Shown: positions 6,946-34,336 of the stretch, in pieces
Layout: every line of letters begins with the position of its first letter
How positions within the stretch are numbered: the stretch's first letter is position 1
DNA from: a virus
Taxonomy: Duplodnaviria; Caudoviricetes
Length of the DNA: 40,604 nt
Strand: one strand, 5' to 3'
Virus record (IMG/VR): IMGVR_UViG_3300017774_001647
Coordinates: 1-40,604 of that record
Program-made: the position numbers and the translations under genes
The notes under the pieces: model-generated
Database searches by the model: none
Seen by the model: the letters and a program-made list of their open reading frames with translations, nothing else
What the model was told of the DNA's origin: nothing

Positions 6946-7650
6946 ATGATACAGCTAAGGGAGATAATCGGCTACCCAAATTTAGATTGGCATATAAAGA
7001 ATGGTAAGAGCCTATCAGAGAATGTATATAGGTATTCTTCCAAATCATTTTTAAGCCTATTTGCGGAGGCAAGACAAGCTTTGTCTGAAGGGATGATATC
7101 TTTATCACAAGAAGATAATGAGTTGATTAGAGAGACTGATATAGGGCTATACGGAGAATATAATGGAATAGAAGTACCGTTGGATATCCCAATGGAAGAG
7201 GAAGATGATGTTGAATGTGATAAATGTAAACATTCTTGGAAATCAGACTCAGAAGATGACAGGCCAACCCTGTGTCATATTTGTGGTTATGATAGTGAGC
7301 TTAACGCATATGATATGCCAGCTTTGTTGATTTGGAAAAGTATGAATGAAGCAAAGTATCAAGGAAAGGAAGTTGCATTGAATAAGCCAAAAAGAGGGGG
7401 ATCTAAAAAATTCTATGTTTATACTAAAAATCCTAAGACGGGTAAGGTAATTAAGGTAAGTTTTGGGGCAGAAGGCGGTGGGCAAAACTTAGCAGTTAAG
7501 TTTAAGGAGCCTGGGGCTAGAGCATCATTTGCAGCAAGACATCAGTGCAGTACAAAGAAAGATAAAACAAAAGCAGGATATTGGAGCTGTAGACTTCCAC
7601 GTTACTGGAAACAGCTAGGAGGAGATAAAAACTATTCTGGTTTTTGGTAA
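6946..7650 (+). CDS. Multi-module hypothetical protein (Zn ribbon plus basic C-terminal module), probable internal head protein
   Basis: CDKC...CHICG ribbon. After MNE comes a basic module KKFYVYTKNPKTGKVIKVSFG...ARHQC...AGYWSC, of a type common in large phages. Confidence 0.55.
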   Translation: MIQLREIIGYPNLDWHIKNGKSLSENVYRYSSKSFLSLFAEARQALSEGMISLSQEDNELIRETDIGLYGEYNGIEVPLDIPMEEEDDVECDKCKHSWKSDSEDDRPTLCHICGYDSELNAYDMPALLIWKSMNEAKYQGKEVALNKPKRGGSKKFYVYTKNPKTGKVIKVSFGAEGGGQNLAVKFKEPGARASFAARHQCSTKKDKTKAGYWSCRLPRYWKQLGGDKNYSGFW

Positions 7651-7651
7651 A

Positions 7652-7915
7652 ATGAATCCGTATACAGATTTGATAGAATCAGATGCATCGGTTATAAGAG
7701 TATTTGATGAGAACATAGACCCTATAGAATTAAAGTGGCATAGGGATTTAGAGGATAGAAGAATAACAGTGTTAGAGGGCTCGGGATGGTATTATCAAAA
7801 AGAGGATGAATTACCTATTGAACTTTTACCTAGAGTAGATATATTTATAAGAGCACTAGAATGGCACAGAGTCATAAAAGGAAAGACTAATTTAAAAATA
7901 AAAATACAATCATGA
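7652..7915 (+). CDS. Small cupin-fold protein
   Basis: WHRDLEDR...VLEGSG and IFIRALEWHRVIK match cupin motifs 1 and 2. Confidence 0.7.
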   Translation: MNPYTDLIESDASVIRVFDENIDPIELKWHRDLEDRRITVLEGSGWYYQKEDELPIELLPRVDIFIRALEWHRVIKGKTNLKIKIQS

Positions 7916-8535
7916 AAAAATCTCAATTAATATCAATTATTGCAGAACAGCTTAAATCAGTTATAAACGAAAATAAAGATTTAAACTCATATGGCAAAGT
8001 ATTATTTGACCGATTAAATAAAAATGGATTTGAAGCTAAGTTCGTTACATCAAGCTCAGATTTTGATAAGTTTGGTAAAATTGCTAGAGAAACCAGAGAC
8101 AAAAAACTTGCGGTTGTACAATACGATGATATGGGTGTTAAGGGGGATGGATTTATTCTAATAGGGGTCAATAACCAAACACATGATGAGGTCGGAGAAA
8201 TATTAGATAGTATTAAATTTGAATTACCAGAAGGAGGGAGACACATGGTTAATAGCATTAATAGCTGGCAAGTTCAAGGGCCAAGCTTGGTTCCATCCAA
8301 AAAAGTAACAGAAGCTGAAGCTCCTGCAGCTCCAACAGATGTAGCCAATCTTGCTAAAGCTCAAGGTGCCGCAACTGGAGTAGCATCCAGAGCTAAAAAT
8401 ATAAATACTCCTCAAGAATTTCCAGGAGCATTTGAAGCATGGTTTAAAACATTAGGATATGAACCAGGTAAAATAGGAAAAGGTGTTGTAAGAGCATCTG
8501 TTGATAAAGTGTTAACCGACCTTGGATTTAAATAA
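7912..8535 (+). CDS. Hypothetical two-module protein with capsid-targeting-like leader
   Basis: Starts MKKSQLISIIAEQLKSVINE. A second module follows VTE. Confidence 0.6.
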   Translation: MKKSQLISIIAEQLKSVINENKDLNSYGKVLFDRLNKNGFEAKFVTSSSDFDKFGKIARETRDKKLAVVQYDDMGVKGDGFILIGVNNQTHDEVGEILDSIKFELPEGGRHMVNSINSWQVQGPSLVPSKKVTEAEAPAAPTDVANLAKAQGAATGVASRAKNINTPQEFPGAFEAWFKTLGYEPGKIGKGVVRASVDKVLTDLGFK

Positions 8536-8865
8536 ATGACTAAATTACTTAACCTTTTAATCGAGGCTATAAAGCCAAAAGAAACCTTTGAAGAATTCGC
8601 TGAAAAGCGTGGTGAAGGTGCCGCTAAAATAGCGTCAACCGCAGAGGAAAAAGGTGGGCTATCTTTGTTAACATGGCACCATTTTAAAGTAAAAGCCCCA
8701 TATTACAAAAAAGCAACTGCTGGTAAGTTTGATGAAGAAGCTGCAAAAAAAGAATTTGATAAAACATTGAAAAGTATTTCGGTAAGTATGACTGCTATTG
8801 AATTTCAAAGAGAAGTAGGTCGATTAGAGGTATTGGGGGAGCTGCTTATACGAGATAAAAAATAA
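8536..8865 (+). CDS. Hypothetical protein with leader (MTKLLNLLIE)
   Basis: 109-aa ORF abutting both neighbours. Confidence 0.6.
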   Translation: MTKLLNLLIEAIKPKETFEEFAEKRGEGAAKIASTAEEKGGLSLLTWHHFKVKAPYYKKATAGKFDEEAAKKEFDKTLKSISVSMTAIEFQREVGRLEVLGELLIRDKK

Positions 8866-9512
8866 TGAAGTTAACAGATTTAATTTTTGAGGATGCTTTC
8901 TATGGTGGCACAACCATGTCTAAGAATACATCTATTATGGGAGGGGTTACTGAGGGTATTTCTTCTTTGTATAAATCTGGAAAAATAAATGGTAAGGTTT
9001 TAGATTATGGTGCAGGAAGAGTCGATAGAAATGCTAAATTTTTAAGGGCTAATGGATTAGAGGTTTATTCCTTTGATCCCTTTTGGGGTAGTGGGGATAA
9101 CGGATATGTTACTACATCTGACAAATTACCTAACGATACTTTTGATGTTGGGTATACTTCATATGTTTTAAATGTTGTAAGTTTTCCGGAACAATCGGAC
9201 ATCTTAAGCACTATGAATGCTTTATGTAAAAAGCAATATCACATAGTTAGATTCATGGATTTGTATGATTTAGCTAAGAAAAATCTAGAATCAGATAAGG
9301 ATAATTTAATCAAAAACTTTTTTACTAATCAATATAAGGGTAACTTAGATACCTACATCAATTCTGATAAAGGGCAGAGAATGCAGATTCTTACTGATTT
9401 CTTACAATATGGAACCGAGACATCAAACGGATTCCAGAGATTGGTAGCACTTGAAGATCAAGGGTTTACATTAATTAAAAAGGCTTCTGGTTATAGAATT
9501 TACGAAAAGTAA
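8865..9512 (+). CDS. Class I SAM-dependent methyltransferase with leader MKLTDLIFE
   Basis: Motif I VLDYGAGR, post-I SFDPF, and FDVGYTSYVLNVV. Confidence 0.75.
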   Translation: MKLTDLIFEDAFYGGTTMSKNTSIMGGVTEGISSLYKSGKINGKVLDYGAGRVDRNAKFLRANGLEVYSFDPFWGSGDNGYVTTSDKLPNDTFDVGYTSYVLNVVSFPEQSDILSTMNALCKKQYHIVRFMDLYDLAKKNLESDKDNLIKNFFTNQYKGNLDTYINSDKGQRMQILTDFLQYGTETSNGFQRLVALEDQGFTLIKKASGYRIYEK

Positions 9513-9542
9513 CTACTAAGAAAGTATTTAAATACTAAATAA

Positions 9543-10130
9543 ATGAAAAAATCGAAACTAATATCATTAATAAAAGAAGAATATAGAAAATCTACTATTC
9601 AACTTGAACAAGGCGAAAGTTCTGAAGAAGAAGCTTTTGATAAGGAGTTTAGTAAAGCAGCGAATGATATAGCAGTAGCTTTAGGTAACGAACTTAAAAC
9701 AAAAGATAAAAAAGATCTAAACGAAGCTATTTTATTAACTGCTATTTCTGCTATAATGACCGCTAACGCTGTTGTTGGCTTAATTTCAAAATACTCAGCT
9801 AAACTGTTTAAGTTGTTAAACTTTAAAAAAGGGGAAGATGTAGCAGAAAAAATATACCATTGGGCTCATGATAATGAGATGGCATTTCAATCCCCTATCA
9901 AACGAGTGTTGGGATTCTTTGTTAAGGACGCTAAAACCCTAGATATTTTAACTAAAGCTATATATGCTATTGTAGTAGGAACTATGGCCGCAGGTTACGG
10001 TGCCCAAGTGATAGATAAATTATCGAATGCCGATTGGTTTAGCAGTGCATTGAGTGCTTTGAAAACCGTTGCAAAAGCAGATGAAACCATTGTAAATTCT
10101 TATCCAGCAATTAAATCTTTGATAGGTTAA
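9543..10130 (+). CDS. Hypothetical protein with leader and two hydrophobic helices
   Basis: Leader MKKSKLISLIKEE. Hydrophobic AILLTAISAIMTANAVVGLIS follows LNE directly; a second segment is AIYAIVVGTMAAGYG. Confidence 0.6.
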   Translation: MKKSKLISLIKEEYRKSTIQLEQGESSEEEAFDKEFSKAANDIAVALGNELKTKDKKDLNEAILLTAISAIMTANAVVGLISKYSAKLFKLLNFKKGEDVAEKIYHWAHDNEMAFQSPIKRVLGFFVKDAKTLDILTKAIYAIVVGTMAAGYGAQVIDKLSNADWFSSALSALKTVAKADETIVNSYPAIKSLIG

Positions 10131-10145
10131 AATATTTACATACGC

Positions 10146-12391: not shown

Positions 12392-12392
12392 C

Positions 12393-13529: not shown

Positions 13530-14045
13530 ATGAAACTATCTGAATTAAAATCTTTAGTAAACGAATCACTTGATAACTGGTTTAAGGAGAAGTGGGTTAG
13601 AATAACTACCGCTGGTAATATAGCTGGCCCATGTGGAACTTCTAAAGACACAAAGAATCCTGATAGATGCCTACCTAGAGCAAAGGCACAATCCTTAACT
13701 AAAGCAGAAAGAGCCGCTACTGCTAGGAAGAAGAAAGCCGCTGGATCAAAGGGTAAACAAGTTGTTCCTAATACTGATAAAGCAAAAGTAACAAAAGAAA
13801 CAGCAAATCCGCAAGATGGAAAATCATCACCATACGGATCGGGGTTTAGAAAAGTAACTCGAGAGTCTATAACAGAGATTGTTAGGGATATAATTTCTGA
13901 AAAGAAGAAGAAAAAGAAAAAGAAAAAGAAAGATGATAGATGTACTAGGATTGCAAAATCTGAGTACGACACTTGGCCCTCTGCATATGCATCTGGGGCT
14001 GTAGTTAGATGTCGTAAAGGTGACATATGGAAAAACGTAAAATAA
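13530..14045 (+). CDS. Basic two-module protein with leader and poly-Lys tract (probable internal head/DNA-binding protein)
   Basis: Leader MKLSELKSLVNE; WFKEKWV...DRCLP module; K10 tract; WPSAYASGAVVRCRK module. TATTTATA at 13516-23. Confidence 0.6.
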   Translation: MKLSELKSLVNESLDNWFKEKWVRITTAGNIAGPCGTSKDTKNPDRCLPRAKAQSLTKAERAATARKKKAAGSKGKQVVPNTDKAKVTKETANPQDGKSSPYGSGFRKVTRESITEIVRDIISEKKKKKKKKKKDDRCTRIAKSEYDTWPSAYASGAVVRCRKGDIWKNVK

Positions 14046-14491
14046 GAAGATCTGACATAGTAGCTTTTAGTAGGGAAATACTCAATGAGTATGTAAAACA
14101 TGCAAATGAATCTAAAGTAAATACTTCAGAAGTAAGATATAGTTTCCCTAATTTTGATAGGGAGTGGATGGAGGCCCAAAGGTATCCTGAATTTGTTGAA
14201 ATGGGAAAACAGGGTTGGATTGATATTTCAAAAAAAGGTAAACCAGTTTCTTTTTCTACTATAAGAAAAGTATTAGGAAATGCTGATTTAAGTTTTATTA
14301 ATTTAGAGGAGCCTAAAAAAGAACGCTTTAAAAGAGCATTTGAAAAGGGTCAAATAGAAATGCCCATAGCTGTTAAATTCAGTGATACGGATTACGATTT
14401 AGTTGCAGGTAATACAAGATTAGCTGGATTAGTTAAGAACGGAATCAATCCTGAAATATGGATTGTAGATTTAACCAGACTCAAAAAATGA
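14027..14491 (+). CDS. ParB/sulfiredoxin-like domain protein
   Basis: MPIAVK...YDLVAGNTRL matches the ParB/Srx GxxR motif. The N-terminus RRSDIVAFSREILNE is leader-like. Confidence 0.65.
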   Translation: MEKRKIRRSDIVAFSREILNEYVKHANESKVNTSEVRYSFPNFDREWMEAQRYPEFVEMGKQGWIDISKKGKPVSFSTIRKVLGNADLSFINLEEPKKERFKRAFEKGQIEMPIAVKFSDTDYDLVAGNTRLAGLVKNGINPEIWIVDLTRLKK

Positions 14492-14961
14492 AAATAACTG
14501 AATTAATTAAAGATCTAGTAAAAGAGGGGAAGCTGTCTGACTATGGTGATAATAATACACCTGCTGCTTTAAATAAAGAAAAAGAAATAAAAGGTAAAAA
14601 TATTAAACCGGAAGATTCTATTACAGATTTAGACCTTAACACCTTAAATAGAAATCAAACTATAAAAGAATATCGATACGGTCCGCTAAACCCTGAAGAT
14701 GAAAAGGGATCTAAGAAATTCTGGGAAGATAAGGCCGATATGTGGAATACTACTGTAGAGCATGCTAAAACATCAAGATGTGCAAATTGCTCTGCTTTTG
14801 ATAAATCTAAATCAACATTGGATAAAATAGCTAAGGGATTAGGAGAAGAAGGTAAGCAAATGGTTAAACAATCCAACCTTGGATTTTGTGAACTGTTCTG
14901 GTTTAAGTGTGCAGGCGCAAGAACTTGCGATGCTTGGATAGGTGGGGGACCAATAAAATAA
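14488..14961 (+). CDS. Cys-rich hypothetical protein with leader (start corrected to 14488)
   Basis: ATGA overlap gives MKITELIKDLVKE. RCANCSAF...FC....FKC....TCDAW is a candidate metal or Fe-S binding set. Confidence 0.6.
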   Translation: MKITELIKDLVKEGKLSDYGDNNTPAALNKEKEIKGKNIKPEDSITDLDLNTLNRNQTIKEYRYGPLNPEDEKGSKKFWEDKADMWNTTVEHAKTSRCANCSAFDKSKSTLDKIAKGLGEEGKQMVKQSNLGFCELFWFKCAGARTCDAWIGGGPIK

Positions 14962-16012: not shown

Positions 16013-17709
16013 TGGTACAAACTTTAACACTACAGCAAGTTTCAGAAAAACTTCTGAAAGTAGAAAAGGCTCTAGGGACTCTCTACAATATAAACTCACC
16101 AGAGGCTATCGGTAAAATTAAAACTTTAAAAGTTATTAAAGAGTCTCTTCTAAATAAGAAAGCAATACTATTGAAAGAATCAAGTAGTATTTTTGTAACA
16201 AATAAATCAGGAAAAACTACAGTACTTTCTGCAGAGCCGGGGGATATTACTGCTATTGATAAGACTATTGATCAAGACCCAGCTATTACGAAAGCAGTAA
16301 CTTCTGCTGGAAAAAAATTAAAAGAGGCTGAGGAATCTGATGTAGCTTTGAATATGGATTATGTTGGTAAAGTATTAACAAGTTTATTCACTGATTTTTT
16401 AAGAAATATTGGGGAAGAAATAAGTAGCGTAGACTACAATTCTATTTCCAAAGATGAGATAGAGGTAAAAATTCAATTTAAGGAAGGAACTAATAAGAAC
16501 TATAAATTCAAAATAGAAGGGGATAAGCTTTTTATTGATGGAAATTATTTGATTGATCTTAGTAGATTACCATCTGGGGAAGTACAAATCCCTCAAGAAA
16601 CATTAAGCTCAAGCTTATATAAACATTTTGAAGGTAAATTAGAATTTAATGATATGGATGTTAATGAAGAATTATTAGATGAAGCTTCTTGGAAACAGAT
16701 TGTTTTAGGTCTAGGTCTTACAGCTGCAACAATTGCAGGAATCGGAAAAGCGTTTTTACCTCCATCTGCTGAAGAATTAAGAGATAAAGAAACGCTTCAA
16801 AAAGTAGTTAATTTACAAAAAGAAGCACTAGAAAGAACTTCGGATGAAGACGTTTTAAAAATGGTAAGATCACTTGAGGGGTTCCTTAATACATCATACA
16901 TACAGTTTTCAGCACAACAAGCTGACAGGCTAGGCTCAGAAAAAATGAGTAGCTTAATTAATCAAGAAGCTAGAACTATTATTGAAAAATTAATTCAAAC
17001 AGGAAATGAAAACGTCAAAGCTGGATTTTTAGTTAAAGCTGATGGTACAATGACTTGGGTAAATCCAACTAAAATTTCACCCGTAAATGAAGATATCGTT
17101 ACAGATGTAAAAGGAAACATTCTTCATGTTGGGGACAAAATAAAAGTAGGTAATATTATTTTTGAAATTAATTTTGATTACAAGGAAAACCTAGTATATT
17201 TGAATACAGGTAAAAATAAAGTTTATGGAGGCACTAAAGAATTTAAAGTGCTTTTAGAAAGCTCAAACTTGTATGGAGCGGATAAAAATCTACTTGAAAT
17301 GGTAGAAGTGGGCGATAGAGTCAAAATAAGTAAGAGTTACGGTGGAAGCAGAGGTACTGTAGTAGATAAAAAAGATTCTTTTATTACATTAGAGGGTGGG
17401 GAGTCTTATCCTGAATCTGAAGTAGTAAATGTTTCTAGAAAGTTAGGTCAGGATGTAGATCTTGGCCATGTGGATGATGAGCCGGGTATGCTATCTCAAA
17501 CTGCCTATGAAACAGCAGTGCATGCAGCAAATATTTACAAGCAGCTTAAGGCTTACGAAAGATTAAATACAGAAATAGATTTTCCAAATTGGTGGCAGTC
17601 TAAAGTAATTCTAGCTAAAGATTACATAAGTAAAGCTGATTCTTGGTTGGAATTTACAACAAGAGAGCGTAACTTTATGGAGGAAGAAAAAAATACAAAA
17701 GAATCATGA
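16012..17709 (+). CDS. Large multi-module probable internal head protein (start corrected to 16012)
   Basis: TAATG coupling gives MVQTL. Modules are separated by LKE, VNE, LDE and LLE. Includes a hydrophobic helix, KOW/SH3-like modules (VGDKIKV, VGDRVKI) and a C-terminal FPNWWQSKV module. Confidence 0.6.
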   Translation: MVQTLTLQQVSEKLLKVEKALGTLYNINSPEAIGKIKTLKVIKESLLNKKAILLKESSSIFVTNKSGKTTVLSAEPGDITAIDKTIDQDPAITKAVTSAGKKLKEAEESDVALNMDYVGKVLTSLFTDFLRNIGEEISSVDYNSISKDEIEVKIQFKEGTNKNYKFKIEGDKLFIDGNYLIDLSRLPSGEVQIPQETLSSSLYKHFEGKLEFNDMDVNEELLDEASWKQIVLGLGLTAATIAGIGKAFLPPSAEELRDKETLQKVVNLQKEALERTSDEDVLKMVRSLEGFLNTSYIQFSAQQADRLGSEKMSSLINQEARTIIEKLIQTGNENVKAGFLVKADGTMTWVNPTKISPVNEDIVTDVKGNILHVGDKIKVGNIIFEINFDYKENLVYLNTGKNKVYGGTKEFKVLLESSNLYGADKNLLEMVEVGDRVKISKSYGGSRGTVVDKKDSFITLEGGESYPESEVVNVSRKLGQDVDLGHVDDEPGMLSQTAYETAVHAANIYKQLKAYERLNTEIDFPNWWQSKVILAKDYISKADSWLEFTTRERNFMEEEKNTKES

Positions 17710-18239
17710 GGAAATCAGATTTAAAGGATATAATTCTAGAGGCATACGCAGAAGTATTATCTGAGCAGAGTGTTCCTACAACAATGGATGAGCTACTAGC
17801 TAGATTTCCATCTCTTTACAGAGCGGTTAATAATTTATTGACAAAGGATTATAGGAATTTTGCTACGGCCATAGAGTGGGTATCCCCCAAGCCTAGTACA
17901 TTTAGAGTCATATTAAACAACCAGCAAGCATTTTATTTGAAGTGGCTAGGTAAAGGATTTCAAGCTACTATAGAAGGTAAAAAATACTATATAGAAAACG
18001 TTGCTGAATTTCAACAAGCTCTAGACAGAGTTTCAGAGCTATTAAAGCACAGTGAACCTCAGGTAGACACCCCTGATTTGGGAGATGATATTGCTCCTGC
18101 AGCAGCTTCTGCCGACTTTGGGGATACTGCTAGTGCTCCCACACCAGACGCAGGGGCTACAACAACTGCAACTGAATTTGAAGAAGAGCCAACTCCTCCG
18201 GGAGAGGCCGCTCCTGAATTTGAAGAGCCTGCAGCTTAA
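17706..18239 (+). CDS. Hypothetical protein with leader and acidic Pro/Ala tail
   Basis: MRKSDLKDIILEAYAEVLSE; WVSPKPSTFRV. Confidence 0.6.
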   Translation: MRKSDLKDIILEAYAEVLSEQSVPTTMDELLARFPSLYRAVNNLLTKDYRNFATAIEWVSPKPSTFRVILNNQQAFYLKWLGKGFQATIEGKKYYIENVAEFQQALDRVSELLKHSEPQVDTPDLGDDIAPAAASADFGDTASAPTPDAGATTTATEFEEEPTPPGEAAPEFEEPAA

Positions 18240-23362: not shown

Positions 23363-24220
23363 ATGAAGTATATAAAGCATAGTAAGTACAAGAACACTGG
23401 ATTAATATTTGAGCTTTTGGTAAGACAAATAGCTTCAGACACGATTTATAAGAAAGAATCCCCAGCTGTATCTATACTTAAGAAGTATTACAGTGATAAA
23501 TCCGCTCTTAGCAAAGAATATAAATTGTATGAGTTTGTTGAAAAACAGACTAAGTTAAATGCTACTAAGGCTGAAACAGTACTTACAACAGTACTTGAAA
23601 TGGCTAAGAGATTGAATCAGGATAAATTAAAGTCCACAAAATACGATTTAATAAAAGAGATTAAGGATAGTTACGATTTAGATGAGTTCTTTACTATAAA
23701 AGTAAACAATTACAAGACACATGCTGCGTTGTATTGCTTGATGGAGATTTCAATGTGTAATGATTTGATAGACCCTCAAGCTATAGTAGAAAATAAAACT
23801 ACAATACTAGAGCATTTAACAGGTACAGCAGTTAATCCATTAGCAGTTAGAGATAATCTTATAGAGGAGTATTCTAAATACGATAAGGATTTAAGACTTT
23901 TAACTTATAAGATTCTTTTAGAGAAGTTTAACAAGAGGTATATTAATTTATTGCCGGAGCAGAAAAACATTCTAAGACAATTTATACAATCTGTATCTTC
24001 TAGTAAGAAGCTTTACAATTTTGTAAATGAGGAGATGGTTAAGATAAAGTCTATTTTGCAAGAAAACCAAGATAGAGTAGTAGATCAAATTGTTAAGATT
24101 AAATTACAAGAGGTAATTAAAAGCATTAAGCCGGTTGATAAGTCTGAAAAAATTACAGATAGTCATCTTGTAAGTTTAATGCAATATTACGATCTTGTAT
24201 CAGAATTGAAAACTGTATGA
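23363..24220 (+). CDS. Helical head-assembly-region protein
   Basis: IKHSKYKNTGLIFELLVRQI. Directly after portal, with TATTTATA at 23334-41. Confidence 0.55.
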   Translation: MKYIKHSKYKNTGLIFELLVRQIASDTIYKKESPAVSILKKYYSDKSALSKEYKLYEFVEKQTKLNATKAETVLTTVLEMAKRLNQDKLKSTKYDLIKEIKDSYDLDEFFTIKVNNYKTHAALYCLMEISMCNDLIDPQAIVENKTTILEHLTGTAVNPLAVRDNLIEEYSKYDKDLRLLTYKILLEKFNKRYINLLPEQKNILRQFIQSVSSSKKLYNFVNEEMVKIKSILQENQDRVVDQIVKIKLQEVIKSIKPVDKSEKITDSHLVSLMQYYDLVSELKTV

Positions 24221-24471
24221 AAAAATCCCAAATAATTGAGTTAGTTAAACAGATTATGCAGGAGCAAAGTGCAACAGGAGGAGGAGTAGCAGGAGCGTCT
24301 TTTACCCCCGGGGTAGGTATGAATTATGCTACCCCATTTGCATTTAGTAAGAAAGGCGTTAAAAACAGAGCAACTAAGCATCAAGAAAAAATGGGATGGA
24401 CTGTTGTTAAACGAAAAAAAAGACCATATAGCACCAAACTTATAGATTATTTAGATGAGAACACTTACTGA
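24217..24471 (+). CDS. Small protein with leader
   Basis: MKKSQIIELVKQIMQE, then a Gly-rich YATPFAF segment and a basic tail. Confidence 0.6.
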   Translation: MKKSQIIELVKQIMQEQSATGGGVAGASFTPGVGMNYATPFAFSKKGVKNRATKHQEKMGWTVVKRKKRPYSTKLIDYLDENTY

Positions 24472-26452
24472 AAAATATAATGGAGTCCTTAAAGGGCTCT
24501 TTTCAAAGGATCAATTTTTAAGAGATGCTAGAATGGAGCAGTCCCATTTTATCACTCAGCATAACTCATATGGAGATGCTGTTAATATTCTTTTGAATAA
24601 AGGATTAATTTCTGAGGGTGAATTAAACAAATATGGTAAATTTGCCAAAGCAAAATCAGAAGCTATGAAACTTTCTAAAGAAGAAGGGAAGAAGAAGTAT
24701 GTAGAGCAGGGACCGGATGAAACCTTTATAGTATCTAATTCTTATGATGATAAAAAAACTATCGCATCTTTTGAGAATGGAAGATTTTTATCTGGAAAGG
24801 AAACACTTGACGAAATAGATATTACGGAAAAAATGGTTAATCCAGATCATACCGCTGCAGCAATTCCGTTGGAGGAAGTAATTACCCCTGAGGAGTTGGC
24901 ATACGCTAAGGAGCAAGAAAGACTACAAGCAAATCCAGAGAGAAAGGGGATAGAAGATGTACGTGCAATGCTTGATAAAGAGCGGTTTAAGCCTATGAAA
25001 TTCGATGATCCAGAACTAGATCAAGAATATCAAGAATGGTTAGATAGTGGATATGACGGACCTCTAGAAGAGGTAAACCTTGAAGAAGGCCCCGCTAGGA
25101 ACAATCCTAAAATTGAGAGGCTAGTTGCAGGTATTAATGATTTGATTGCTAAAGCAGTAGACTCAGACGGAGATCCAGTTGGAGTAATCGAACCAGGAAC
25201 TACTTGGGAAGAGCCATATATGTATTATCCAATCGAGTACAAAAACGGACAGTTAAAAATTACATCTCAAAGTTTATACAAAAATACTCCCGAGGTATAT
25301 ACTATTCTTTCAAGAAATATGGAGTATGAGGGAATACCTACTTTGAGATTAATCATGAGAATGTACAAGAAAGCTATTAAGCAAGCAGGTAGAATGTCAA
25401 GTCAGGATATTGAGGAGAAAAAGTTAACTGATGCAGAGAAGGCTGGAAAAGAAAAGATTGTAAAATCTTTAGCTAAGGCAGGCATGAGTAAAAAGGACCC
25501 AAAGACTTATGCAATAGCAACTACTCAAGCCAAAGAACTTTATGAAGGATTTGGAGAAGTTAATGATGCTTATTCAGATATTTTAGAGGTATATAAAAAG
25601 CACTATACTCAATTATCTAACATGAGTGAAGATGATGCTTATGCATTGCATGAATTACTAAAGTCATATTTCAATAGATTATTTGAAGGTGATAGTCAAG
25701 AATCATCTTCCAAAGTGAAAAAAGGAGATGTTTTGAAGCATCAACCTTCTGGGGTTGAGTTGGAAGTTACGCATGTAGATGAAAAATATATAAGAGGATT
25801 TATAAAATCTGCAGGTAAAGTTAAAGGCGTAGAGTTGGTAGTTGGTAAAATGGCACAATTAAAGCCTGTAGAATTGGGATCAGTATGGAATAAGGTTGTA
25901 GAATCCACACTTTCAGAAGCTACTGACGAATCTTTCGAAACATACACAGATGCATCAGCAGTAGCAAGGAGGTTGAGTAGAATTGAAGAGGGTAAAGTTT
26001 ATATATTTGAAGTAGAAAAAACAATACAAGAATATATTATATCTAAAGAACCAATTGCTGGCGCAGAACTTGCAGGTGTATTTCTTGATGGAATGCCTGT
26101 GGTTGATAATACTTTACAGGAGGCAAAAGAAGAGGGATACGAATCCCCTAAACCTGAATTGCCACTAGATGTATTACATCATGGTATTCGATTTGAATTG
26201 GATAAAAAAGAAATAGGAAATACCCCTACAAAAGAGGAGTACTTGAAAGCATATAAAGCTGCCACTAAAAATCTTGAAAAGGATTTGCTTCATTACAAAA
26301 GAGAAGAGGGCGCTGAGGATGCACCAGTATCTAAAAGTGATGAGATGGTTAAAGTTAAGTTAAAGGAAAGCTTTAAGAAAATTATTAGAAATATTCTTTC
26401 TGAGAATGAATCTGATAAGAAGGCTTTTAACCTAAATGGAAAAGTAATATGA
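24455..26452 (+). CDS. Large multi-module prohead core/internal head protein
   Basis: 665 aa, charged, immediately upstream of the protease. More than 12 [L/I/V]-x-E sites separate dissimilar segments. Confidence 0.6.
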   Translation: MRTLTEKYNGVLKGLFSKDQFLRDARMEQSHFITQHNSYGDAVNILLNKGLISEGELNKYGKFAKAKSEAMKLSKEEGKKKYVEQGPDETFIVSNSYDDKKTIASFENGRFLSGKETLDEIDITEKMVNPDHTAAAIPLEEVITPEELAYAKEQERLQANPERKGIEDVRAMLDKERFKPMKFDDPELDQEYQEWLDSGYDGPLEEVNLEEGPARNNPKIERLVAGINDLIAKAVDSDGDPVGVIEPGTTWEEPYMYYPIEYKNGQLKITSQSLYKNTPEVYTILSRNMEYEGIPTLRLIMRMYKKAIKQAGRMSSQDIEEKKLTDAEKAGKEKIVKSLAKAGMSKKDPKTYAIATTQAKELYEGFGEVNDAYSDILEVYKKHYTQLSNMSEDDAYALHELLKSYFNRLFEGDSQESSSKVKKGDVLKHQPSGVELEVTHVDEKYIRGFIKSAGKVKGVELVVGKMAQLKPVELGSVWNKVVESTLSEATDESFETYTDASAVARRLSRIEEGKVYIFEVEKTIQEYIISKEPIAGAELAGVFLDGMPVVDNTLQEAKEEGYESPKPELPLDVLHHGIRFELDKKEIGNTPTKEEYLKAYKAATKNLEKDLLHYKREEGAEDAPVSKSDEMVKVKLKESFKKIIRNILSENESDKKAFNLNGKVI

Positions 26453-27027
26453 ATAATCTATTAATAGATGTACAATCTTTCAAACCAATACTAAAAGAGT
26501 CTAAAGAAAGACCTGGGGTATTTGAGGTTGAGGGAGTGTTACAACGAGCGGGAGCTAAGAATCAAAACGGTAGAGTTTATGATAAGTCTCTTTTGAAAAG
26601 AGAAGTAGACAAGTATGTAAATGAGTTCGTACAGGTTGGAAATGCTTTCGGTGAGTTAGATCATCCGGAGTCTGCCATAGTATCCCTTAAGAATGCATCT
26701 CATGTAGTTAAATCACTATGGTGGAATGGAGATGACTTGATGGGAAAGATTGAGTTACTCAATACCCCATCAGGAAATATTGTAAAAGAAATTGTTAAAG
26801 CGGGACATACAATTGGTATTTCATCTAGAGGAACAGGATCAGTAAAACAGACAAACGAAGGTACTTTAATGGTACAATCGGATTTTGAATTGGTAGCGTG
26901 GGATTTTGTATCTAACCCTTCTACTCATGGTGCTTTTATGAGACCTACAACTATTAATGAGGGTAAAGATGCATACGATAAGTATATTAAACTAGACTCT
27001 ATCTTGAATAATATTTTAAGATCGTAA
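26449..27027 (+). CDS. Prohead core protease (T4 gp21-like)
   Basis: KNQNGRVY, GELDHP, LNTPSG, IGISSRGTGS, WDFVSNPST. Confidence 0.93.
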   Translation: MNNLLIDVQSFKPILKESKERPGVFEVEGVLQRAGAKNQNGRVYDKSLLKREVDKYVNEFVQVGNAFGELDHPESAIVSLKNASHVVKSLWWNGDDLMGKIELLNTPSGNIVKEIVKAGHTIGISSRGTGSVKQTNEGTLMVQSDFELVAWDFVSNPSTHGAFMRPTTINEGKDAYDKYIKLDSILNNILRS

Positions 27028-27398
27028 TGAAGCTAATACCTATATTAATATCTACTGTAAATGAGGAAATATTATTAGAAGATTTATCTAATAAAGAAGA
27101 GAGAGAATTAAATATTTCTAAAGCAATAGAGAAAACATTAACTGTTGCTAAAGAAGAAGGGCTACATAGGGGAATGTTACACTATTCAATGTTTGTTAGT
27201 TCAGCACCTAAAAAAAGAATTCGGACTAATATGGGTAATACCTATACACCAGCAGGACAAGTGACTGAACCTAATGATAGCTATAGAAAGGAAATGACAG
27301 TATGGAAGAATACTAAATTATTTCCATTCTTTATGGAGAATGGGTATACTAAAGAACAGCTAACAGATGCTTTTAATAAATCAGTGTTTGTAAAATAA
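27027..27398 (+). CDS. Hypothetical protein with leader
   Basis: MKLIPILISTVNEEILLE; TAATG coupling. Confidence 0.55.
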   Translation: MKLIPILISTVNEEILLEDLSNKEERELNISKAIEKTLTVAKEEGLHRGMLHYSMFVSSAPKKRIRTNMGNTYTPAGQVTEPNDSYRKEMTVWKNTKLFPFFMENGYTKEQLTDAFNKSVFVK

Positions 27399-27416: not shown

Positions 27417-28199
27417 ATGAAAAAATTTAATTTAACAAATTTTCTAGTAGAAAATAAGCTTACTAGATTGGGAAGATTATCAGAAGGATATATGGGTACG
27501 GAATATGAATCCTCTGAAGACATGGCCGTAGATATGGCTAAAAAGGGGGTTTACGAAGAGGAATCTGAAGTAGAAGAGGATTATTCCAAATATGGCAGTG
27601 TAGAGGAGCTAATGAAGCAAATCGAGACTAGTACCAACGAAGCCGCTATGAAGCACAAGATGGAGCGAGTTAAGAAGGCTTATGAGTCTTTGGAATCGAC
27701 TGCAACATCTTTGGAGGAAGGAGAACATTCAAGCTACATATCTCCAGCTAAGTTGAAAGAAATGAAGACTTCTGCAAAGAAGCTTAGAATGATGCATGAG
27801 AAACTTGTTAAGGATTACGATAAAAAGTATATGTCAAAAAAAAAAGTTGAGTTAAAGGAATCTTTAGATGAGAATGAAGGGGTAAAAAAGCCTTTATCTC
27901 AATTAACTTTTGCAGACGTAGTATCAGCCTTCCCTAGTATTGGACAAATGAGCACTACTGGATTTAAAACAAGAGTAGGAGTAAATTTCCCTAATGCAGA
28001 CGATAGTGAAAACGTAGTGTATAGAGAGCAAGATTTTGAAAACTGGAAATCAGGATTAATGTCTCAAGTGCCTGATGCTACTATTGAACTTAATTCATTA
28101 GCCAACAAAGTAATAGTACATGGTGAAGAATATGCAACAAAGAGAGACTCTGCCATAGCTTCAAAACAATTATCAATGGATAGAATGTTTAAAAAATGA
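27417..28199 (+). CDS. Multi-module probable prohead core protein with class-2 leader
   Basis: MKKFNLTNFLVENKLT..LSE, then a coiled coil and a module after LKE/LDE. Confidence 0.6.
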   Translation: MKKFNLTNFLVENKLTRLGRLSEGYMGTEYESSEDMAVDMAKKGVYEEESEVEEDYSKYGSVEELMKQIETSTNEAAMKHKMERVKKAYESLESTATSLEEGEHSSYISPAKLKEMKTSAKKLRMMHEKLVKDYDKKYMSKKKVELKESLDENEGVKKPLSQLTFADVVSAFPSIGQMSTTGFKTRVGVNFPNADDSENVVYREQDFENWKSGLMSQVPDATIELNSLANKVIVHGEEYATKRDSAIASKQLSMDRMFKK

Positions 28200-28408
28200 A
28201 TCTACTAGAAGTATTATCTGATACTGTAAATGTAAACTACTATCAAAAGTTATTAGATTTAAACTCAAAAATATCAATAACTCAAAGGAAATACTTACAA
28301 GGAGTCCTAGATAGTATAAAAAATAAGGAAGGTAAAACAACTCCAAAACAGTACGAGATACTTCAAAAAATAAAAAAAGGAGATTTTTCCTATCATTCTA
28401 AGAATTAA
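28196..28408 (+). CDS. Small basic hypothetical protein
   Basis: 70 aa, starts MNLLE, ATGA overlap, followed by a terminator. Confidence 0.5.
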   Translation: MNLLEVLSDTVNVNYYQKLLDLNSKISITQRKYLQGVLDSIKNKEGKTTPKQYEILQKIKKGDFSYHSKN

Positions 28409-28569: not shown

Positions 28570-29649
28570 ATGAATAACAAAAAACTATTTGAAGAGGCGA
28601 TTGCTGAGGCTAAGTCTATTCGAGAAGCTGCTATTGCAAATGCAAAAGAGGCACTTGAAGAGTCACTTACCCCGCAAATCAAAGAACTTCTTGCTCAGCG
28701 ATTAACTGAATTGGAAGAAGAAGAAATTCCCGTAATGGAGGAAGAAGAAGAAGGAGCAGAAGAAGCTGGCGAAGAAGAAGCTGGTGAAGAAACTGAAGAA
28801 GATATGGATATTGAAGATATGTCCGTAGAAGAATTGAAAGCTCTAATTAGAGACATTGTAGGTCAGATGGTTGATCAAGATGGCGATGGCGATCACGACA
28901 CGGAAGATCACGAAATGGATGACATGGGTATGGAAGAGCCTGCAGGCGAAGAAGCCCCTGAAGATGAAGAAATAGATCTTGAAGAATTACTTGCTGAACT
29001 ATATTATGAAGAAGAAGATACTACGATGGAAAATAAAAAATCAATGATGAAAGAACCTATTCAAGAAATCGGTGAGAATGATCTAGCTGGATTGATATCT
29101 ATATTAGCCGCTGGTGGAGTCGTTGCCGGTTCTTACGCATACGCAAAAATAGTAGACTTCTTAAAATCAGGCAAGGCCAGTCCACAAGCCAAAAAATTAG
29201 GTAGTCCACTAGTAAAGTTTGATGATGAGGCAACAGGCGCAGCTAAAGCAGCGGGAACTAATGAACCTAGAGTTTCAGAAACCGAGCTTAACGAAGCCAA
29301 GAAGACTATCAAGAAGTTAACAGAAGGATTGCGAGAAGTAAATTTACTAAACGCAAAATTACTTTATGTAAACAAGGTGATGAAAGAGAATAAGAATCTT
29401 TCTGACAGCCAAGTAGCAAATGTAATTAGCACTTTCGACAAAGCAGCCACAGTAAAAGAGGCTAAATTGGTATACGAAAGCATATCAACTACTTTCAAAA
29501 AAGGAGTAAAAGCACAAGTTGCAGAATCTAGAGTTAAAGGTATTGCTTCTAAGTCTACAGGTGCTGCCGTTAAAACTCCTCAAGTAATCGCAGAAGTTTC
29601 TGATGCGGTAAAGAGAATGCAAAAATTAGCTGGAATTATTAAAAATTAA
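28570..29649 (+). CDS. Prohead scaffolding protein (T4 gp22-like position)
   Basis: Acidic coiled coil directly upstream of the major capsid gene; C-terminal RMQKLAGI. Confidence 0.8.
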   Translation: MNNKKLFEEAIAEAKSIREAAIANAKEALEESLTPQIKELLAQRLTELEEEEIPVMEEEEEGAEEAGEEEAGEETEEDMDIEDMSVEELKALIRDIVGQMVDQDGDGDHDTEDHEMDDMGMEEPAGEEAPEDEEIDLEELLAELYYEEEDTTMENKKSMMKEPIQEIGENDLAGLISILAAGGVVAGSYAYAKIVDFLKSGKASPQAKKLGSPLVKFDDEATGAAKAAGTNEPRVSETELNEAKKTIKKLTEGLREVNLLNAKLLYVNKVMKENKNLSDSQVANVISTFDKAATVKEAKLVYESISTTFKKGVKAQVAESRVKGIASKSTGAAVKTPQVIAEVSDAVKRMQKLAGIIKN

Positions 29650-29670: not shown

Positions 29671-31254
29671 ATGAACGTAAATCAATTACTAGAAAGCTCT
29701 AATACATATAAGAGCATGCTTAACGAAGCCGCAGGCTTTGCTAAGAAATGGGAGCAGTCCGGCCTTTTGGAAGGACTTGCTGAGAGAGACAAAGTACAAA
29801 TGGCTCTTATCTTGGAAAACCAAGCTAAGCAGTTAGTAGTCGAGCAGTCCTCAAACAACTCTGGCGGTGCCACCTTTGGCAGTGGAGGAACAGGTGAGCA
29901 GTGGGCAGGTATTGCTCTTCCACTTGTAAGAAAAGTATTCGCTGAAATCTCTTCTAAGGATTTCGTATCTGTACAACCAATGAACCTTCCTTCTGGTCTA
30001 ATTTTCTATCTAGACTTTAAGTACGGAACTGCGGTAAATGGCAGAGCTGCGGGCGATAGCATGTACGGTAACGTATCTTTTGGTGATGACAAGATGCTTG
30101 TTGACGAAGAAGTAGCTGGTGGTCTTTATGGCGCCGGTCAGTTTGGATATTCTATTAACCAAACATCTTCTGTAGCTCAGGTAACTGGTCAAGCTGCCAA
30201 CTCTGCATCTATTGCTTATCAGGATGGAACTAACCCTTCTGCTTTCTGGGTATTCGGTGTTAGTTTATCTGGTAAAGGATTTGATGCTGAAGGTATTCGT
30301 GCTTTCCGTCTTAAGAACTCTGCGGGTACTGATATCACTACTAACCCTGAATTGACTACTGTAGCTAGTAACACTGTATCTTTCGTAGTAGCTAAGGCAA
30401 CTCAAGCATCTGCAGCTTTGACTGGATCTATTATTTTCCACAAGCAGCCTGTTGACAACCAAAGAGGTGACTTCGAAGATAATCCTGCTGGAACAATTTC
30501 TATTCCTGAGTTGAACATCGAATTGAAGTCTGAAGCTATCGTTGCTAAGACTCGTAAATTGAAGGCTCAGTGGACTCCAGAATTTGCACAAGATCTTTCT
30601 GCATATCAGTCTGTTGATGCTGAAGCTGAATTGACTTCTTTGCTTTCTGAGTACATTTCTATGGAAATCGATCTTGAAATACTTGACATGTTGATCAAAG
30701 GTGCCGCTACTACCGAAAGATGGTCTGCTGTATCTAACAAAGTATGGAACGGTACTACTTGGGTAACCAACGGAGTTGACGCTGGAGGATTTTACAACAC
30801 TCAGGGCCAGTGGTTCCAAACTATTGGTACTAAGATGCAAAAGGTATCTAACAAGATTCACCAGAAGACTCTTCGTGGTGGTGCTAACTTCCTTATCTGT
30901 TCTCCATCTGTTGCAACTATTTTGGAATCTATTCCTGGATATGCTGCTGACACTAATGGTGACAAGATGGAATTCGCAATGGGCGTACAGAAAGTAGGTT
31001 CTTTGAACTCTCGATTCAAAGTATACAAGAATCCATACATGACTGAAAACGTAATCTTGATGGGTTACAAAGGATCTCAGTTCTTGGAAACTGGTGCAGC
31101 TTATGCTCCATACATTCCATTGATCATGACTCCACTTGTGTATGACCCTACTACATTTACTCCTCGTAAGGGTGTAATGACCAGATACGCAAAGAAAATG
31201 ATCAGACCAGAATTTTACGGTAAAATTTTCGTAAGCGATTTGGCTACAGTATAA
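29671..31254 (+). CDS. Major capsid protein (T4 gp23-like)
   Basis: ILENQ, VQPMNLPSGLIFYL, AKTRKLKAQWTPEFAQDL, YAPYIPL, FTPRKGVMTRY. Codon bias looks high-expression. Confidence 0.96.
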   Translation: MNVNQLLESSNTYKSMLNEAAGFAKKWEQSGLLEGLAERDKVQMALILENQAKQLVVEQSSNNSGGATFGSGGTGEQWAGIALPLVRKVFAEISSKDFVSVQPMNLPSGLIFYLDFKYGTAVNGRAAGDSMYGNVSFGDDKMLVDEEVAGGLYGAGQFGYSINQTSSVAQVTGQAANSASIAYQDGTNPSAFWVFGVSLSGKGFDAEGIRAFRLKNSAGTDITTNPELTTVASNTVSFVVAKATQASAALTGSIIFHKQPVDNQRGDFEDNPAGTISIPELNIELKSEAIVAKTRKLKAQWTPEFAQDLSAYQSVDAEAELTSLLSEYISMEIDLEILDMLIKGAATTERWSAVSNKVWNGTTWVTNGVDAGGFYNTQGQWFQTIGTKMQKVSNKIHQKTLRGGANFLICSPSVATILESIPGYAADTNGDKMEFAMGVQKVGSLNSRFKVYKNPYMTENVILMGYKGSQFLETGAAYAPYIPLIMTPLVYDPTTFTPRKGVMTRYAKKMIRPEFYGKIFVSDLATV

Positions 31255-31276
31255 TCTTATACCTTAGGATTAATTT

Positions 31277-31307: not shown

Positions 31308-31356
31308 GTATTAACCTATATTATTAGTATATTTATAATAAATTAAATATAGATTT

Positions 31357-32043: not shown

Positions 32044-32125
32044 TATAAACTACTAAATACTACCATATCAGTAGTTATGGGTTTAAACAATAAAGTTATC
32101 TATTTATTTATATAGTTTAATTGAT

Positions 32126-33280
32126 ATGGCGAACGTACAAATTTGGACCGAACAAACTACCTTTACTACGGGAAGTACTCCATTCGGATATTATGATAGT
32201 GATGCTCAATTCGCACAGGATGCAAACAAGGTAGCTAAATTTTGTGCTACTAGACTAGGATATCCACTTATGGATGTGGAATTGCAAGGAGTATCATTTT
32301 ATGCTTGTTTTGAAGAGGCGGTTTCTACTTATGCATCTGAGTTATATCAATTTAAGATTAGAGAAAATTATCTTAACTTAGAGGGTAGCTCTGCTTATAC
32401 TTCTCTTAATAATGAATTAGTAAGACCTAATCTTAATAGTATTATTGAGATTTCTAAGTATTATGGAACAGAGGCTGGAGTAAATGGCGTTGTGACAAAA
32501 TATACAGGATCACTTGATCTTATAAAAAATAAACAAAATTACAATTTAAACGATTGGGCAACCGGAAAAGGAATAGTAGGTGGTATAGAAATAAGAAAGA
32601 TATTTTACCAAGCACCTCCAGCTATTACAAGATTCTTTGATCCATATGCAGGCACAGGTACTGGAGTACAAGGCTTAATGGATCAATTTGGATTTGGTTC
32701 GTTATCCCCAGGAATTAACTTTTTGCTGATGCCTGCCTCTTTTGATTTAATGAAGATACAGGGTATTGAGTTTAACGATCAAATAAGAAGGTCTGCTTAT
32801 ACTTTTGAGCTTGTCAATAATCAATTAAAGGTATTCCCAATACCCCTTACAGATGGGTATCTTTATTTTGAATACTTTAAATCCAGAGAAAAGAGAGATT
32901 CTGGTATTATAGATGGTGGATCTGGTCAATCTAGGTTAATTACTGATGTATCTAATGTACCTTATGAAACTGTCACCTATACCAATTTAAACGCCGTTAG
33001 CAGGCAGTGGATATTTAGGTATACATTAGCCTTAACTAGAGAGTTATTGGCTTACATTCGAGGTAAATACACTACAGTACCAATACCTGGGGCGGAGACC
33101 ACATTAAACCAACAAGATTTATTAAATGATTCAAGATCGGAAAAGACAGAGTTGTTAACTCAGTTGAGAGAAATGCTAGGTGAATCATCAAGAAGGAATC
33201 AATTACAGAGACAGGCTGAGGAAGCAGAATCTGCAAATAAAATTTTAAAAGAAGTGCCATTTAAAATATACGTAGGATGA
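32126..33280 (+). CDS. Neck/head-tail connector protein (gp13-like)
   Basis: RLGYPLMDVEL, WIFRYTLAL...RGKY..VPIPG...LN. Position after the capsid gene. TATTTATA at 32105-12. Confidence 0.75.
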   Translation: MANVQIWTEQTTFTTGSTPFGYYDSDAQFAQDANKVAKFCATRLGYPLMDVELQGVSFYACFEEAVSTYASELYQFKIRENYLNLEGSSAYTSLNNELVRPNLNSIIEISKYYGTEAGVNGVVTKYTGSLDLIKNKQNYNLNDWATGKGIVGGIEIRKIFYQAPPAITRFFDPYAGTGTGVQGLMDQFGFGSLSPGINFLLMPASFDLMKIQGIEFNDQIRRSAYTFELVNNQLKVFPIPLTDGYLYFEYFKSREKRDSGIIDGGSGQSRLITDVSNVPYETVTYTNLNAVSRQWIFRYTLALTRELLAYIRGKYTTVPIPGAETTLNQQDLLNDSRSEKTELLTQLREMLGESSRRNQLQRQAEEAESANKILKEVPFKIYVG

Positions 33281-33585
33281 TATCAAAAAGACTATTGTCG
33301 GAAATGGAAGCATATTCTATGTATCGTGTTATAACTAGATTTACACATACGGAAGATATTACTGTTCAAGAGCTAGGTAACTTACTAAGGGCTGTAGAAG
33401 GCGTAGTTACTATAGTACAGGTAGACCATGATTTTTATAAGAAAACTGCTGTGATGAAGATTAAAGTAATTACAAATCAAAATCCACAGGTAGCTTTAAA
33501 GAATTTTAAAGTTAGATCATTGAGGTCAATACCATCTTTAAAAAGAGTAGAGTTCGCAATGAATACTATAACCAAGGAAGGATAA
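33277..33585 (+). CDS. Small hypothetical protein (ferredoxin-like alpha/beta pattern) with short leader
   Basis: MISKRLLSE; LRAVEGVVTIV. Confidence 0.5.
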   Translation: MISKRLLSEMEAYSMYRVITRFTHTEDITVQELGNLLRAVEGVVTIVQVDHDFYKKTAVMKIKVITNQNPQVALKNFKVRSLRSIPSLKRVEFAMNTITKEG

Positions 33586-34070
33586 TGATATTTGGAAGTA
33601 AAAGTGATTTGTCTTTGTTTACAAATATAAACAGGGAGTTATTAAGGGATGTTGTTGAGCAGGAGATTTTATATTATAAGATTTCTTTAAGCGGCACGGC
33701 TAGTAACTTGTATGGTGAGTCTCTTGAAAAAACTTTTATGATTCCAAGTAAGCTGAATTGTTTAATTACTAGAGGAGATCAAATTGTATCTGTGGATGAT
33801 TTTGGCCCTGATTTAAATAGAGCGGCATCTTTTGCATTTTTAAGAGAGGACTTGTCTGACATTGAGGTAGTACCAGAAATAGGTGATGTGGTTGAGTGGC
33901 ACAATGATTTTTATTTAGTAGACACTGTGAGAGAAAATCAATTGTTTCTAGGTAGGGATAATAATTATAATCTAACGAATTACGGAAATCAATTTGGAGG
34001 ATCTATTTCCATAATTGTGGATTGCCATTTGACAAGAGCGGATTTGGTAGGAATAAGAAAAGTAAGATGA
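33585..34070 (+). CDS. Head completion/neck protein (gp14-like)
   Basis: NLYGES..K.F and VPEIGDVVEW; follows the gp13-like gene. Confidence 0.65.
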   Translation: MIFGSKSDLSLFTNINRELLRDVVEQEILYYKISLSGTASNLYGESLEKTFMIPSKLNCLITRGDQIVSVDDFGPDLNRAASFAFLREDLSDIEVVPEIGDVVEWHNDFYLVDTVRENQLFLGRDNNYNLTNYGNQFGGSISIIVDCHLTRADLVGIRKVR

Positions 34071-34336
34071 AAATAACAGATATTATACTAGAGAGTGATA
34101 GATTTCAAACAATACAGACTGGGGAAGACCCTGAGACTGGTAAAATATCTTGGAATGTAGTACCCACTCCTTCTGTTAGTTTGAATAATAACTTGGACCA
34201 AGTGTATGCGGATTTTTTAAAGTTTGCTGCACAGAATCCAAATGATGTTCTTCTAGAAAAATATCTACAGAATTTTAAAAATTTAAAACAGGCTCTTAGA
34301 TCACATATGACTAAGAAATATTCTAAAAGAAAGTAA
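34067..34336 (+). CDS. Small protein with leader (start corrected to 34067)
   Basis: ATGA overlap gives MKITDIILE; DPETGKISWNV. Confidence 0.6.
   Translation: MKITDIILESDRFQTIQTGEDPETGKISWNVVPTPSVSLNNNLDQVYADFLKFAAQNPNDVLLEKYLQNFKNLKQALRSHMTKKYSKRK

Follow-up and report, generated by a model that had tools for sequence, protein, structure and literature searches.

Why do so many unrelated late genes of one phage begin with nearly the same short peptide? We studied this question in a 40,604-nucleotide stretch of a Caudoviricetes virus (IMG/VR record IMGVR_UViG_3300017774_001647, hereafter the window). A preliminary description had pointed there to a leader ending in hydrophobic-x-Glu, spread over genes between positions 6946 and 34336, and had taken it for a tag that loads proteins into the phage head, as the capsid-targeting sequence (CTS) of T4 does. 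Our results showed that the leader is a real feature of these genes, that it exists in several related forms, and that capsid targeting followed by cleavage by a gp21-type protease would be its best explanation.

The window corresponds to the late region of an Immutovirus-like T4-type myophage. Its major capsid protein (MCP) shares 70% identity with its counterpart in Flavobacterium phage vB_FspM_immuto_2-6A (hereafter immuto), a cultured Immutovirus of 160 kb with a similar gene order and a known host, Flavobacterium sp. LMO8, from which we provisionally take the host of the window phage. The sequencing runs that best contain the window are freshwater metagenomes. All called genes lie on the plus strand, and Pfam and PHROGs recognized among them a primase, an exonuclease, TerL, a gp20-type portal, a Peptidase_S77 prohead protease (26449), a gp23-type MCP (29671), PhoH, a neck protein and fibres. 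Gene starts were called with a script, whose calls coincide with those annotated in immuto for 188 of 201 genes. For comparison we used ~1,600 N-termini in ~500 families from 160 IMG/VR loci plus immuto.

The leader and its terminal glutamate

We described the leader by the strict pattern [LIFVM]xx[LIFVMA][LIVM]xE (φ-x-x-φ-φ-x-E, where φ is hydrophobic) and sought it in residues 2–22. It occurs at the N-terminus of 14 of the 46 called window genes, compared with 1.4 ± 1.1 matches in shuffled versions of the same N-termini (maximum 6 in 2000 shuffles) and with 9 of 450 internal 21-residue blocks (Fisher p = 2e-10 against the N-termini). The 14 matches comprise 11 likely cargo genes, the scaffold, the protease and one gene (15644) that we count as doubtful. 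Adding two to five weaker genes, of which two or three are backed by relatives, completes the cargo set. Its leaders are peptides of 9–23 residues ending in hydrophobic-x-Glu, and the 15 tagged bodies behind them share no pairwise similarity at E<1e-3, so the genes are indeed as unrelated as had been claimed.

All 13 N-termini quoted in the preliminary description were found at their positions. Nine of them follow the strict pattern (7912, 8536, 8865, 9543, 13530, 14488, 17706, 24217 and 34067) and two are weak (27027 and 28196), while those at 14027 and 33277 fail it but belong to families that carry it (81 of 120 homologues and 46 of 59 N-termini, respectively). The gene at 6946 has a leader-like start that matches in five of seven family members but lacks the Glu here. 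The estimate of ~15–20 tagged genes thus comes down to 11 strict and two to five weaker cargo genes, not clearly 20. The idea of one and the same leader had to be replaced by that of several related ones, and the list of examples was extended by 19468 and 27417, which carry a class C leader (F-D-L-K-K-F-L-x-E-N-K-L), and by the scaffold and the protease.

Since the strict pattern was composed after the window had been inspected, we added unsupervised searches on the relatives. The de novo search of N-termini, which the preliminary description had proposed, yielded L-K-K-φ-[LI]-x-E with a log-likelihood of 611 against 150–157 for shuffled input, and the same core was recovered when the window, immuto and all families of window genes were left out (636 N-termini). 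A search with the initial Met kept was Met-dominated and uninformative. A learned 8-column matrix also scored two fibres and the gene at 24455 through motifs of their own; because it caught such family-specific motifs, our counts rest on the plain pattern.

When the hydrophobic spacing was kept and only the end residue was varied, the ratio of N-terminal to internal occurrences was 7.0 for Glu, 1.6 for Asp, 2.2 for Ser and 0.7–1.2 for Gln, Lys, Arg, Asn and Ala. The end Glu is thus specifically required. At position −6, 330 strict matches have Leu in 202 cases, Phe in 53, Ile in 53 and Val in 22 (Tyr is excluded by the pattern), and Leu is dominant there in the unsupervised motif as well. The Glu falls on residues 9–13 in 252 of these 330 leaders found within residues 2–22, with Leu, Ile or Val at P3. 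The motif positions use codons much as the genome as a whole does, with the exception of Ile at −6, so the leader is conserved at the protein level; a DNA-level repeat as its source was ruled out by the variation of the codons.

Distribution across genomes

In immuto the strict pattern matches 23 of 233 plus-strand coding sequences (6 small minus-strand ones were left out), compared with 6.2 after shuffling, and the proteins that we regard as tagged are gp3, 40, 41, 103, 157, 176–179, 187–189, 191, 194, 195 and 199. Sorted into gene classes that we assigned from the record, the matches include 2 of 53 enzymes of replication, metabolism, lysis or packaging, 0 of 28 proteins of the tail, baseplate or neck and 2 of 4 head-core proteins. 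Four further near-complete genomes, scanned with Tyr allowed at −6 and with class D added, gave 19/248, 20/229, 16/217 and 16/201 matches against 6–8 in shuffles (maximum 13–17); by class, these were 6 of 148 replication or metabolic genes, 0 of 64 tail genes and 4 of 13 head-core genes. Across the five genomes the leader was found on none of 92 tail genes. The leader is rare on replication and metabolic genes; an equal frequency there had been named in the preliminary description as an outcome that would refute its reading. From the matches per genome and the corresponding shuffles, the true tagged set can be put at roughly 10–16 genes per genome.

Within the window the primase, PhoH, the portal, the neck protein at 32126 and the fibres fail the strict pattern. 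The claim that primase, exonuclease, TerL, PhoH and fibres lack the leader stands for the primase, PhoH and the fibres, but it has to be softened for the exonuclease, which has L-L-T-E at residues 8–11 without the upstream hydrophobe, and for TerL, whose first helix resembles the leader (8.1 bits with the learned matrix; 10 of 74 family N-termini match).

The proposed cutting and docking sides

If the leader works as in T4, a matching protease should be present. The gp21-like protease named in the preliminary description is encoded at 26449 (PF03420, E = 3e-35; 5JBL, T4 gp21, E = 5e-24), and as the catalytic His, Ser and Asp are kept in the alignment with T4 gp21, it looks intact. The MCP, its likely shell substrate, keeps the hydrophobic-x-Glu maturation site of T4: E58 aligns with E65 of gp23 and is invariant in 61 of 61 sequences; T4 gp23 loses 65 residues at this site (PMC9958956; here and below, papers are cited for those parts of their text that were available). 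The T4 enzyme cuts after L/I-X-E, and in the CTS of internal protein III (IPIII) residues 4 and 7 drive targeting and residues 8 and 10 drive processing, Asp at residue 10 blocking the cut but not targeting (PMC9026906). These four residues correspond to −6, −3, −2 and 0, the four conserved positions of our leader, and the N-termini of T4 IPII, IPIII and gp24, as read from the genome, have the same register.

The docking side may be reflected in the putative scaffold, which ends in an R-M-x-x-L-A-G-I helix (29614–29646) that relatives use again as a leader. This end, R-[MFLW]-x-x-L-A-[GN]-[IL], is found in 56 of 58 scaffolds of the relatives, and it begins 11 genes of 10 families, two of them in immuto, with 0 internal occurrences; none of the cargo genes of the window uses it. 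Likewise, the class C motif that 19468 and 27417 carry as a leader terminates 11 of 18 members of a conserved late protein, and part of 27417 is homologous to a conserved family that has this motif at either end. Both the scaffold and the late-protein ends may bind the shell or the core. One short non-scaffold protein of a relative (L107:801-1244) ends, rather than starts, with a scaffold-type R-F-x-x-L-A-G-I. A highly conserved helical protein of 285 residues (23363–24220), located right after the portal, without a leader and also present in Mel-JY01, is a candidate core initiator or leader receptor; its single-sequence fold (pLDDT, a per-residue confidence score, of 41) was unusable.

Portability, turnover and timing

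The protein at 14027 has a ParB/sulfiredoxin-like domain (Atlas), and among the best 120 of its 197 homologues 81 match the strict and 90 a loose pattern. The domain sits behind many different leaders. In 43 of 49 short N-termini φ-x-E lies 2–10 residues before the domain anchor, and where modules are inserted, 13 of 19 junctions end in φ-x-E, compared with 153 of 833 domain-internal blocks. The leader class switches within the families of 9543 and 14488 (B and C), and the members of one family either have a leader of 14 residues or begin right behind its Glu. Tandem arrangements also occur: the protein at 13530–14045 has a leader-like stretch and ~ten consecutive lysines between its two basic Cys-containing modules, the second of which stands at the start of separate tagged genes in relatives. 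Another N-terminal module, [IV]-D-K-[IV]-x-x-E-W ... G-Y-P-D, was observed in 18 genes of 9 families of 330–420-residue proteins in the relatives (e.g., L163:16531-17592 and L096:509-1645); it is conserved well beyond the Glu and is absent from the window.

The tagged genes also turn over fast. No homologue in five related genomes was detected for 10 of 15 tagged genes compared with 6 of 22 other genes of the span (p = 0.001), a comparison in which short genes are harder to detect. Moreover, a contig of a close strain, from one of four runs examined, lacks exactly 7912–8535, a clean whole-gene absence.

Concerning timing, no 7-mer is more enriched upstream of immuto structural genes than TATTTAT (23/81 vs. 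14/152). The window has it 20 times on the coding strand and 4 times on the opposite one, and it precedes TerL, the portal, the scaffold and PhoH. Among immuto genes 1–156, which lie outside the late block, it stands upstream of 4 of 7 tagged genes and 10 of 145 others (p = 0.0014); when five genomes that are related and therefore not independent are taken together, the counts are 34/92 and 130/1036. Inside the window there was no contrast between tagged and untagged genes (4/14 vs. 9/32), as expected because the region is all-late. We propose TATTTAT as a putative late promoter, under which the tagged genes would be expressed late.

The tagged set and its neighbours

Coordinates of the tagged genes and of the proteins that would cut and receive them are collected in Table 1.

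Table 1. Tagged genes, head proteins and TATTTAT sites of the window
Feature	Position	Strand	N-terminus and remarks
Conserved 234-residue protein	6946..7650	+	Leader-like start without Glu
207-residue orphan	7912..8535	+	Class A leader, E12; second I-x-E at 21
109-residue protein	8536..8865	+	Short leader ending E10
SAM-methyltransferase-like protein	8865..9512	+	Leader ending E9; Pfam match under cut-off
195-residue protein with hydrophobic stretches	9543..10130	+	Class A leader ending E12; family has A/B and C leaders
Basic (net +24) Cys-containing two-module protein	13530..14045	+	Leader ending E12
ParB/sulfiredoxin-like domain protein	14027..14491	+	Longer leader ending E21; degenerate relative to the strict pattern
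157-residue Cys-containing protein	14488..14961	+	Leader ending E13; class B or C in relatives
Conserved 177-residue protein, acidic tail	17706..18239	+	Class A leader ending E12
106-residue acidic orphan	19468..19788	+	Class C leader, E12; second site E23
Conserved 84-residue protein between portal and protease	24217..24471	+	Leader ending E16; 43/44 family N-termini match
gp21-type prohead protease (Peptidase_S77)	26449..27027	+	Own motif ending E17
123-residue orphan	27027..27398	+	Weak leader-like start
260-residue acidic protein	27417..28199	+	Class C leader, E12, E23
70-residue orphan	28196..28408	+	Only L-L-E at start; weak
Putative scaffold, acidic, directly before MCP	28570..29649	+	Motif ending E13
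gp23-type MCP	29671..31254	+	E58 aligns with T4 gp23 E65
Conserved 102-residue protein after neck gene	33277..33585	+	Degenerate leader
89-residue protein	34067..34336	+	Short leader ending E9
TATTTAT	20 sites including 7842, 13516, 19442, 19881, 21484, 28465, 31330	+ (coding)	

The start at 14488 is an internal ATG of the reading frame from 14458 and is coupled to the preceding stop. Annotation of these proteins was scarce: a search of NCBIfam with 22 window proteins gave a single weak match far under cut-off, the Atlas search with 33277 was uninformative (best score 0.80), and among 95 tagged proteins of relatives only 6 had any Pfam match and 2 one over cut-off. The 95 are 94 of 109 listed proteins (9 scaffolds and 6 doubtful rows were dropped) plus one immuto gene.

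The set is probably mixed. The conserved or acidic proteins at 24217, 27417, 17706 and 33277 are probably core material, and several tagged proteins that are conserved, acidic or at gp67/gp68 positions may belong to the core and be destroyed with it; the fast-turning orphans and the enzyme-like domains would be the ejected cargo. Two large acidic mosaic proteins without a place in Table 1 (16012–17709 and 24455–26452) have 15 and 23 φ-x-E sites and small domains in common with relatives, and could be candidates for degradable core polyproteins.

Two other neighbours were noted. The 168-residue protein at 12423–12929 has an H-E-x-x-H motif, and its domain is in relatives part of a 635–908-residue protein annotated as nicotinamide mononucleotide (NMN) adenylyltransferase (immuto gp183); we describe it as standing alone in the window because relatives have the same domain inside this larger protein. 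A phosphoesterase-like gene of 376 residues (18300–19430, PHROG 704) has no homologue in the five related genomes.

Proposed mechanism and alternatives

We propose that the hydrophobic face of the leader (positions −6 and −3) would dock each protein into the scaffold core of the prohead during assembly, that the gp21-type protease would cut the leader after the Glu once the shell closes, as in T4, and that the trimmed bodies would then either stay with the DNA in the head or be degraded. We consider this sequence of events, as a whole, probable, although docking, cleavage and retention in the mature head are inferred from sequence. Packing into the capsid is likely because about a dozen unrelated genes start with the head-loading pattern of T4. 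The capsid-targeting reading gained independent sequence support from a register identical to that of the T4 CTS as mapped by mutation, the Glu specificity, the intact protease, the conserved MCP site, the exclusion of the leader from tail and most replication genes, the putative late promoter, the swapping of leaders and the loss of whole genes. The portable loading tag of the preliminary description fits these results, but its "delivery with the DNA" is unsupported by anything testable here. Host entry of the trimmed proteins is the least supported step; that at least part of the tagged set is ejected into the host has, in our judgement, about an even chance.

Several observations weigh against capsid targeting. 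The genome-wide excess is modest (16–20 matches per genome against 6–8 shuffled, maximum 13–17), and in the more distant Mel-JY01 only 2 of 38 head-region genes match. In most relatives the leader is clearly present on a metabolic enzyme, the NT5C 5'-nucleotidase, and TerL as well as a nucleotide kinase (9/22) match through their own first helices, by chance or for structural reasons. Applied to 50 kb of the T4 genome, the strict pattern finds 5 of 67 genes (gp24, gp68, gp2, tk.1 and tk.2), two of which are not known head proteins, and it misses IPI–III, in the case of IPII and IPIII only on account of Tyr at −6. The density of φ-x-E in the cargo bodies (2.0 per 100 residues, 1.9 expected) is neither raised nor depleted, and class C conservation extends beyond the first Glu. 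Homologues with Glu-less leaders exist (even the relaxed pattern misses 29 of 120 ParB-like proteins, and the strict one misses 11 of 26 methyltransferases), and we found no paper on a late-promoter role of TATTTAT.

Could the leader be simply a generic amphipathic first helix, or a start-composition bias of AT-rich genes of Bacteroidota phages, with no shared function? Starts rich in Lys and Leu are common, the first unconstrained motif run gave a diffuse M-K-K-L, and the background is 2–3% per block. Nevertheless, Glu alone is enriched at the end, composition-preserving shuffles yield one tenth of the count, no tail gene in the five genomes is tagged and domain boundaries lie directly after the Glu, so that this explanation is largely refuted and very improbable. 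A true address that leads elsewhere (a membrane assembly site, the phage chaperonin or the outer shell), or a protease-timed cytoplasmic switch, would suit the amphipathic helix, the GroES/GroEL encoded by immuto, the Glu-less variants and the matches of NT5C and TerL, which are easier to place in the cytoplasm. We regard it as quite improbable, given that T4 gp21 is described as active only within the completed prohead (PMC9958956), that two leader classes match the termini of two proteins, the scaffold and a conserved late one, and that tail genes lack the leader.

The leader may also route proteins to the prohead where nearly all of them are core or filler, degraded or kept, with no delivered cargo. 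The motif also stands on the scaffold and the protease, 24217 is conserved and at the gp67/gp68 position, 27417, 17706 and 19468 are acidic, and the scarcity of Pfam matches over cut-off among the tagged proteins of relatives points the same way. We nonetheless think it unlikely, since the leader is found on folded enzyme-like domains (methyltransferase, ParB/sulfiredoxin and NT5C), since fast gain and loss suits conflict with the host better than a scaffold role, and since the IPs and Alt of T4 are ejected (PMC7411985). Capsid targeting of a mixed set can be taken one step further: Immutovirus-like phages may run a modular virion payload, in which interchangeable address peptides load 10–20 fast-changing effector domains (methyltransferase, ParB/sulfiredoxin, nucleotidase and many without annotation) for injection with the DNA, two of the peptides having been copied from the capsid-binding ends of the phage's own core proteins and some of the cargo being polyproteins split by the protease. 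We offer this only tentatively, as a possibility somewhat more doubtful than not.

Hundreds of naturally tagged proteins with several leader classes make docking rules testable, and the cultured relative with its known host makes the leader directly so. If the cargo is ejected, the tag would mark candidate anti-defence or takeover proteins among unannotated genes and would provide a packaging tag for Bacteroidota phages; if the modular payload exists, the leader would allow counter-defence proteins delivered by the virion to be sought with a one-line query in a large group of uncultured phages.

Comparison with known systems

In the literature that we searched, from which subscription papers were mostly absent, neither a description of this leader from Immutovirus-like or uncultured phages nor a virion proteome for immuto came to light. 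The T4 CTS is a conserved tag on diverse proteins (PMC3012670, PMC7411985, PMC9026906; PMC13326640, as far as available, mentions IPI only), and a recent review calls the way in which proteins localize to the T4 core still mysterious (PMC9958956). A portable tag for variable cargo is not a new idea either, as the CTS had already been proposed as a general loading device for the variable cargo of T4-like phages (PMC9026906).

Large sets of processed head proteins cut after Glu are known from phiKZ, 201phi2-1 and SPN3US (proteases gp175/gp245). The tagged repertoire of ~10–16 per genome is larger than that of T4, as had been claimed, but less unprecedented than the preliminary description suggested, given that phiKZ and 201phi2-1 have 19 protease-cut head proteins each (PMC10052503). 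The propeptides of phiKZ and SPN3US are mostly longer than 100 residues and end in A/S/G-X-E (PMC5694885), whereas our leaders have 9–23 residues and a large hydrophobe at P3. The leaders found are therefore not of that type, within a scan that was confined to residues 2–22 and did not search for longer propeptides. P1 DarB also has a capsid-targeting signal at its N-terminus, its first 30 residues sufficing to package a reporter, but the Dar proteins have no common consensus (PMC9024508), unlike the shared, portable one described here.

T4 is the closest parallel. Its CTS, which IPI–III carry and gp21 cuts, as it does the Alt and gp24 propeptides, is likewise short and N-terminal, with hydrophobes at −6, −3 and −2 and a terminal Glu, the gp21-family protease, gp20 portal and gp23 MCP come in the same order, and variable cargo stands behind a conserved tag (PMC3012670, PMC9026906). 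Unlike the aromatic CTS of T4, the leader here is aliphatic and Lys-rich; we rejected membership in the sequence family of the IPII/IPIII peptide, which is aromatic at −6 and −3, as Leu dominates −6 here. T4 has 3–4 tagged genes; here there are at least four leader classes, two of them matching core-protein ends, and tandem modules with junction sites, in a Bacteroidota-infecting lineage in which no IP homologue was recognized. The loading principle is that of T4; what is new is its scale, its several leader classes and modularity, and a cultured host–phage pair in which it can be tested.

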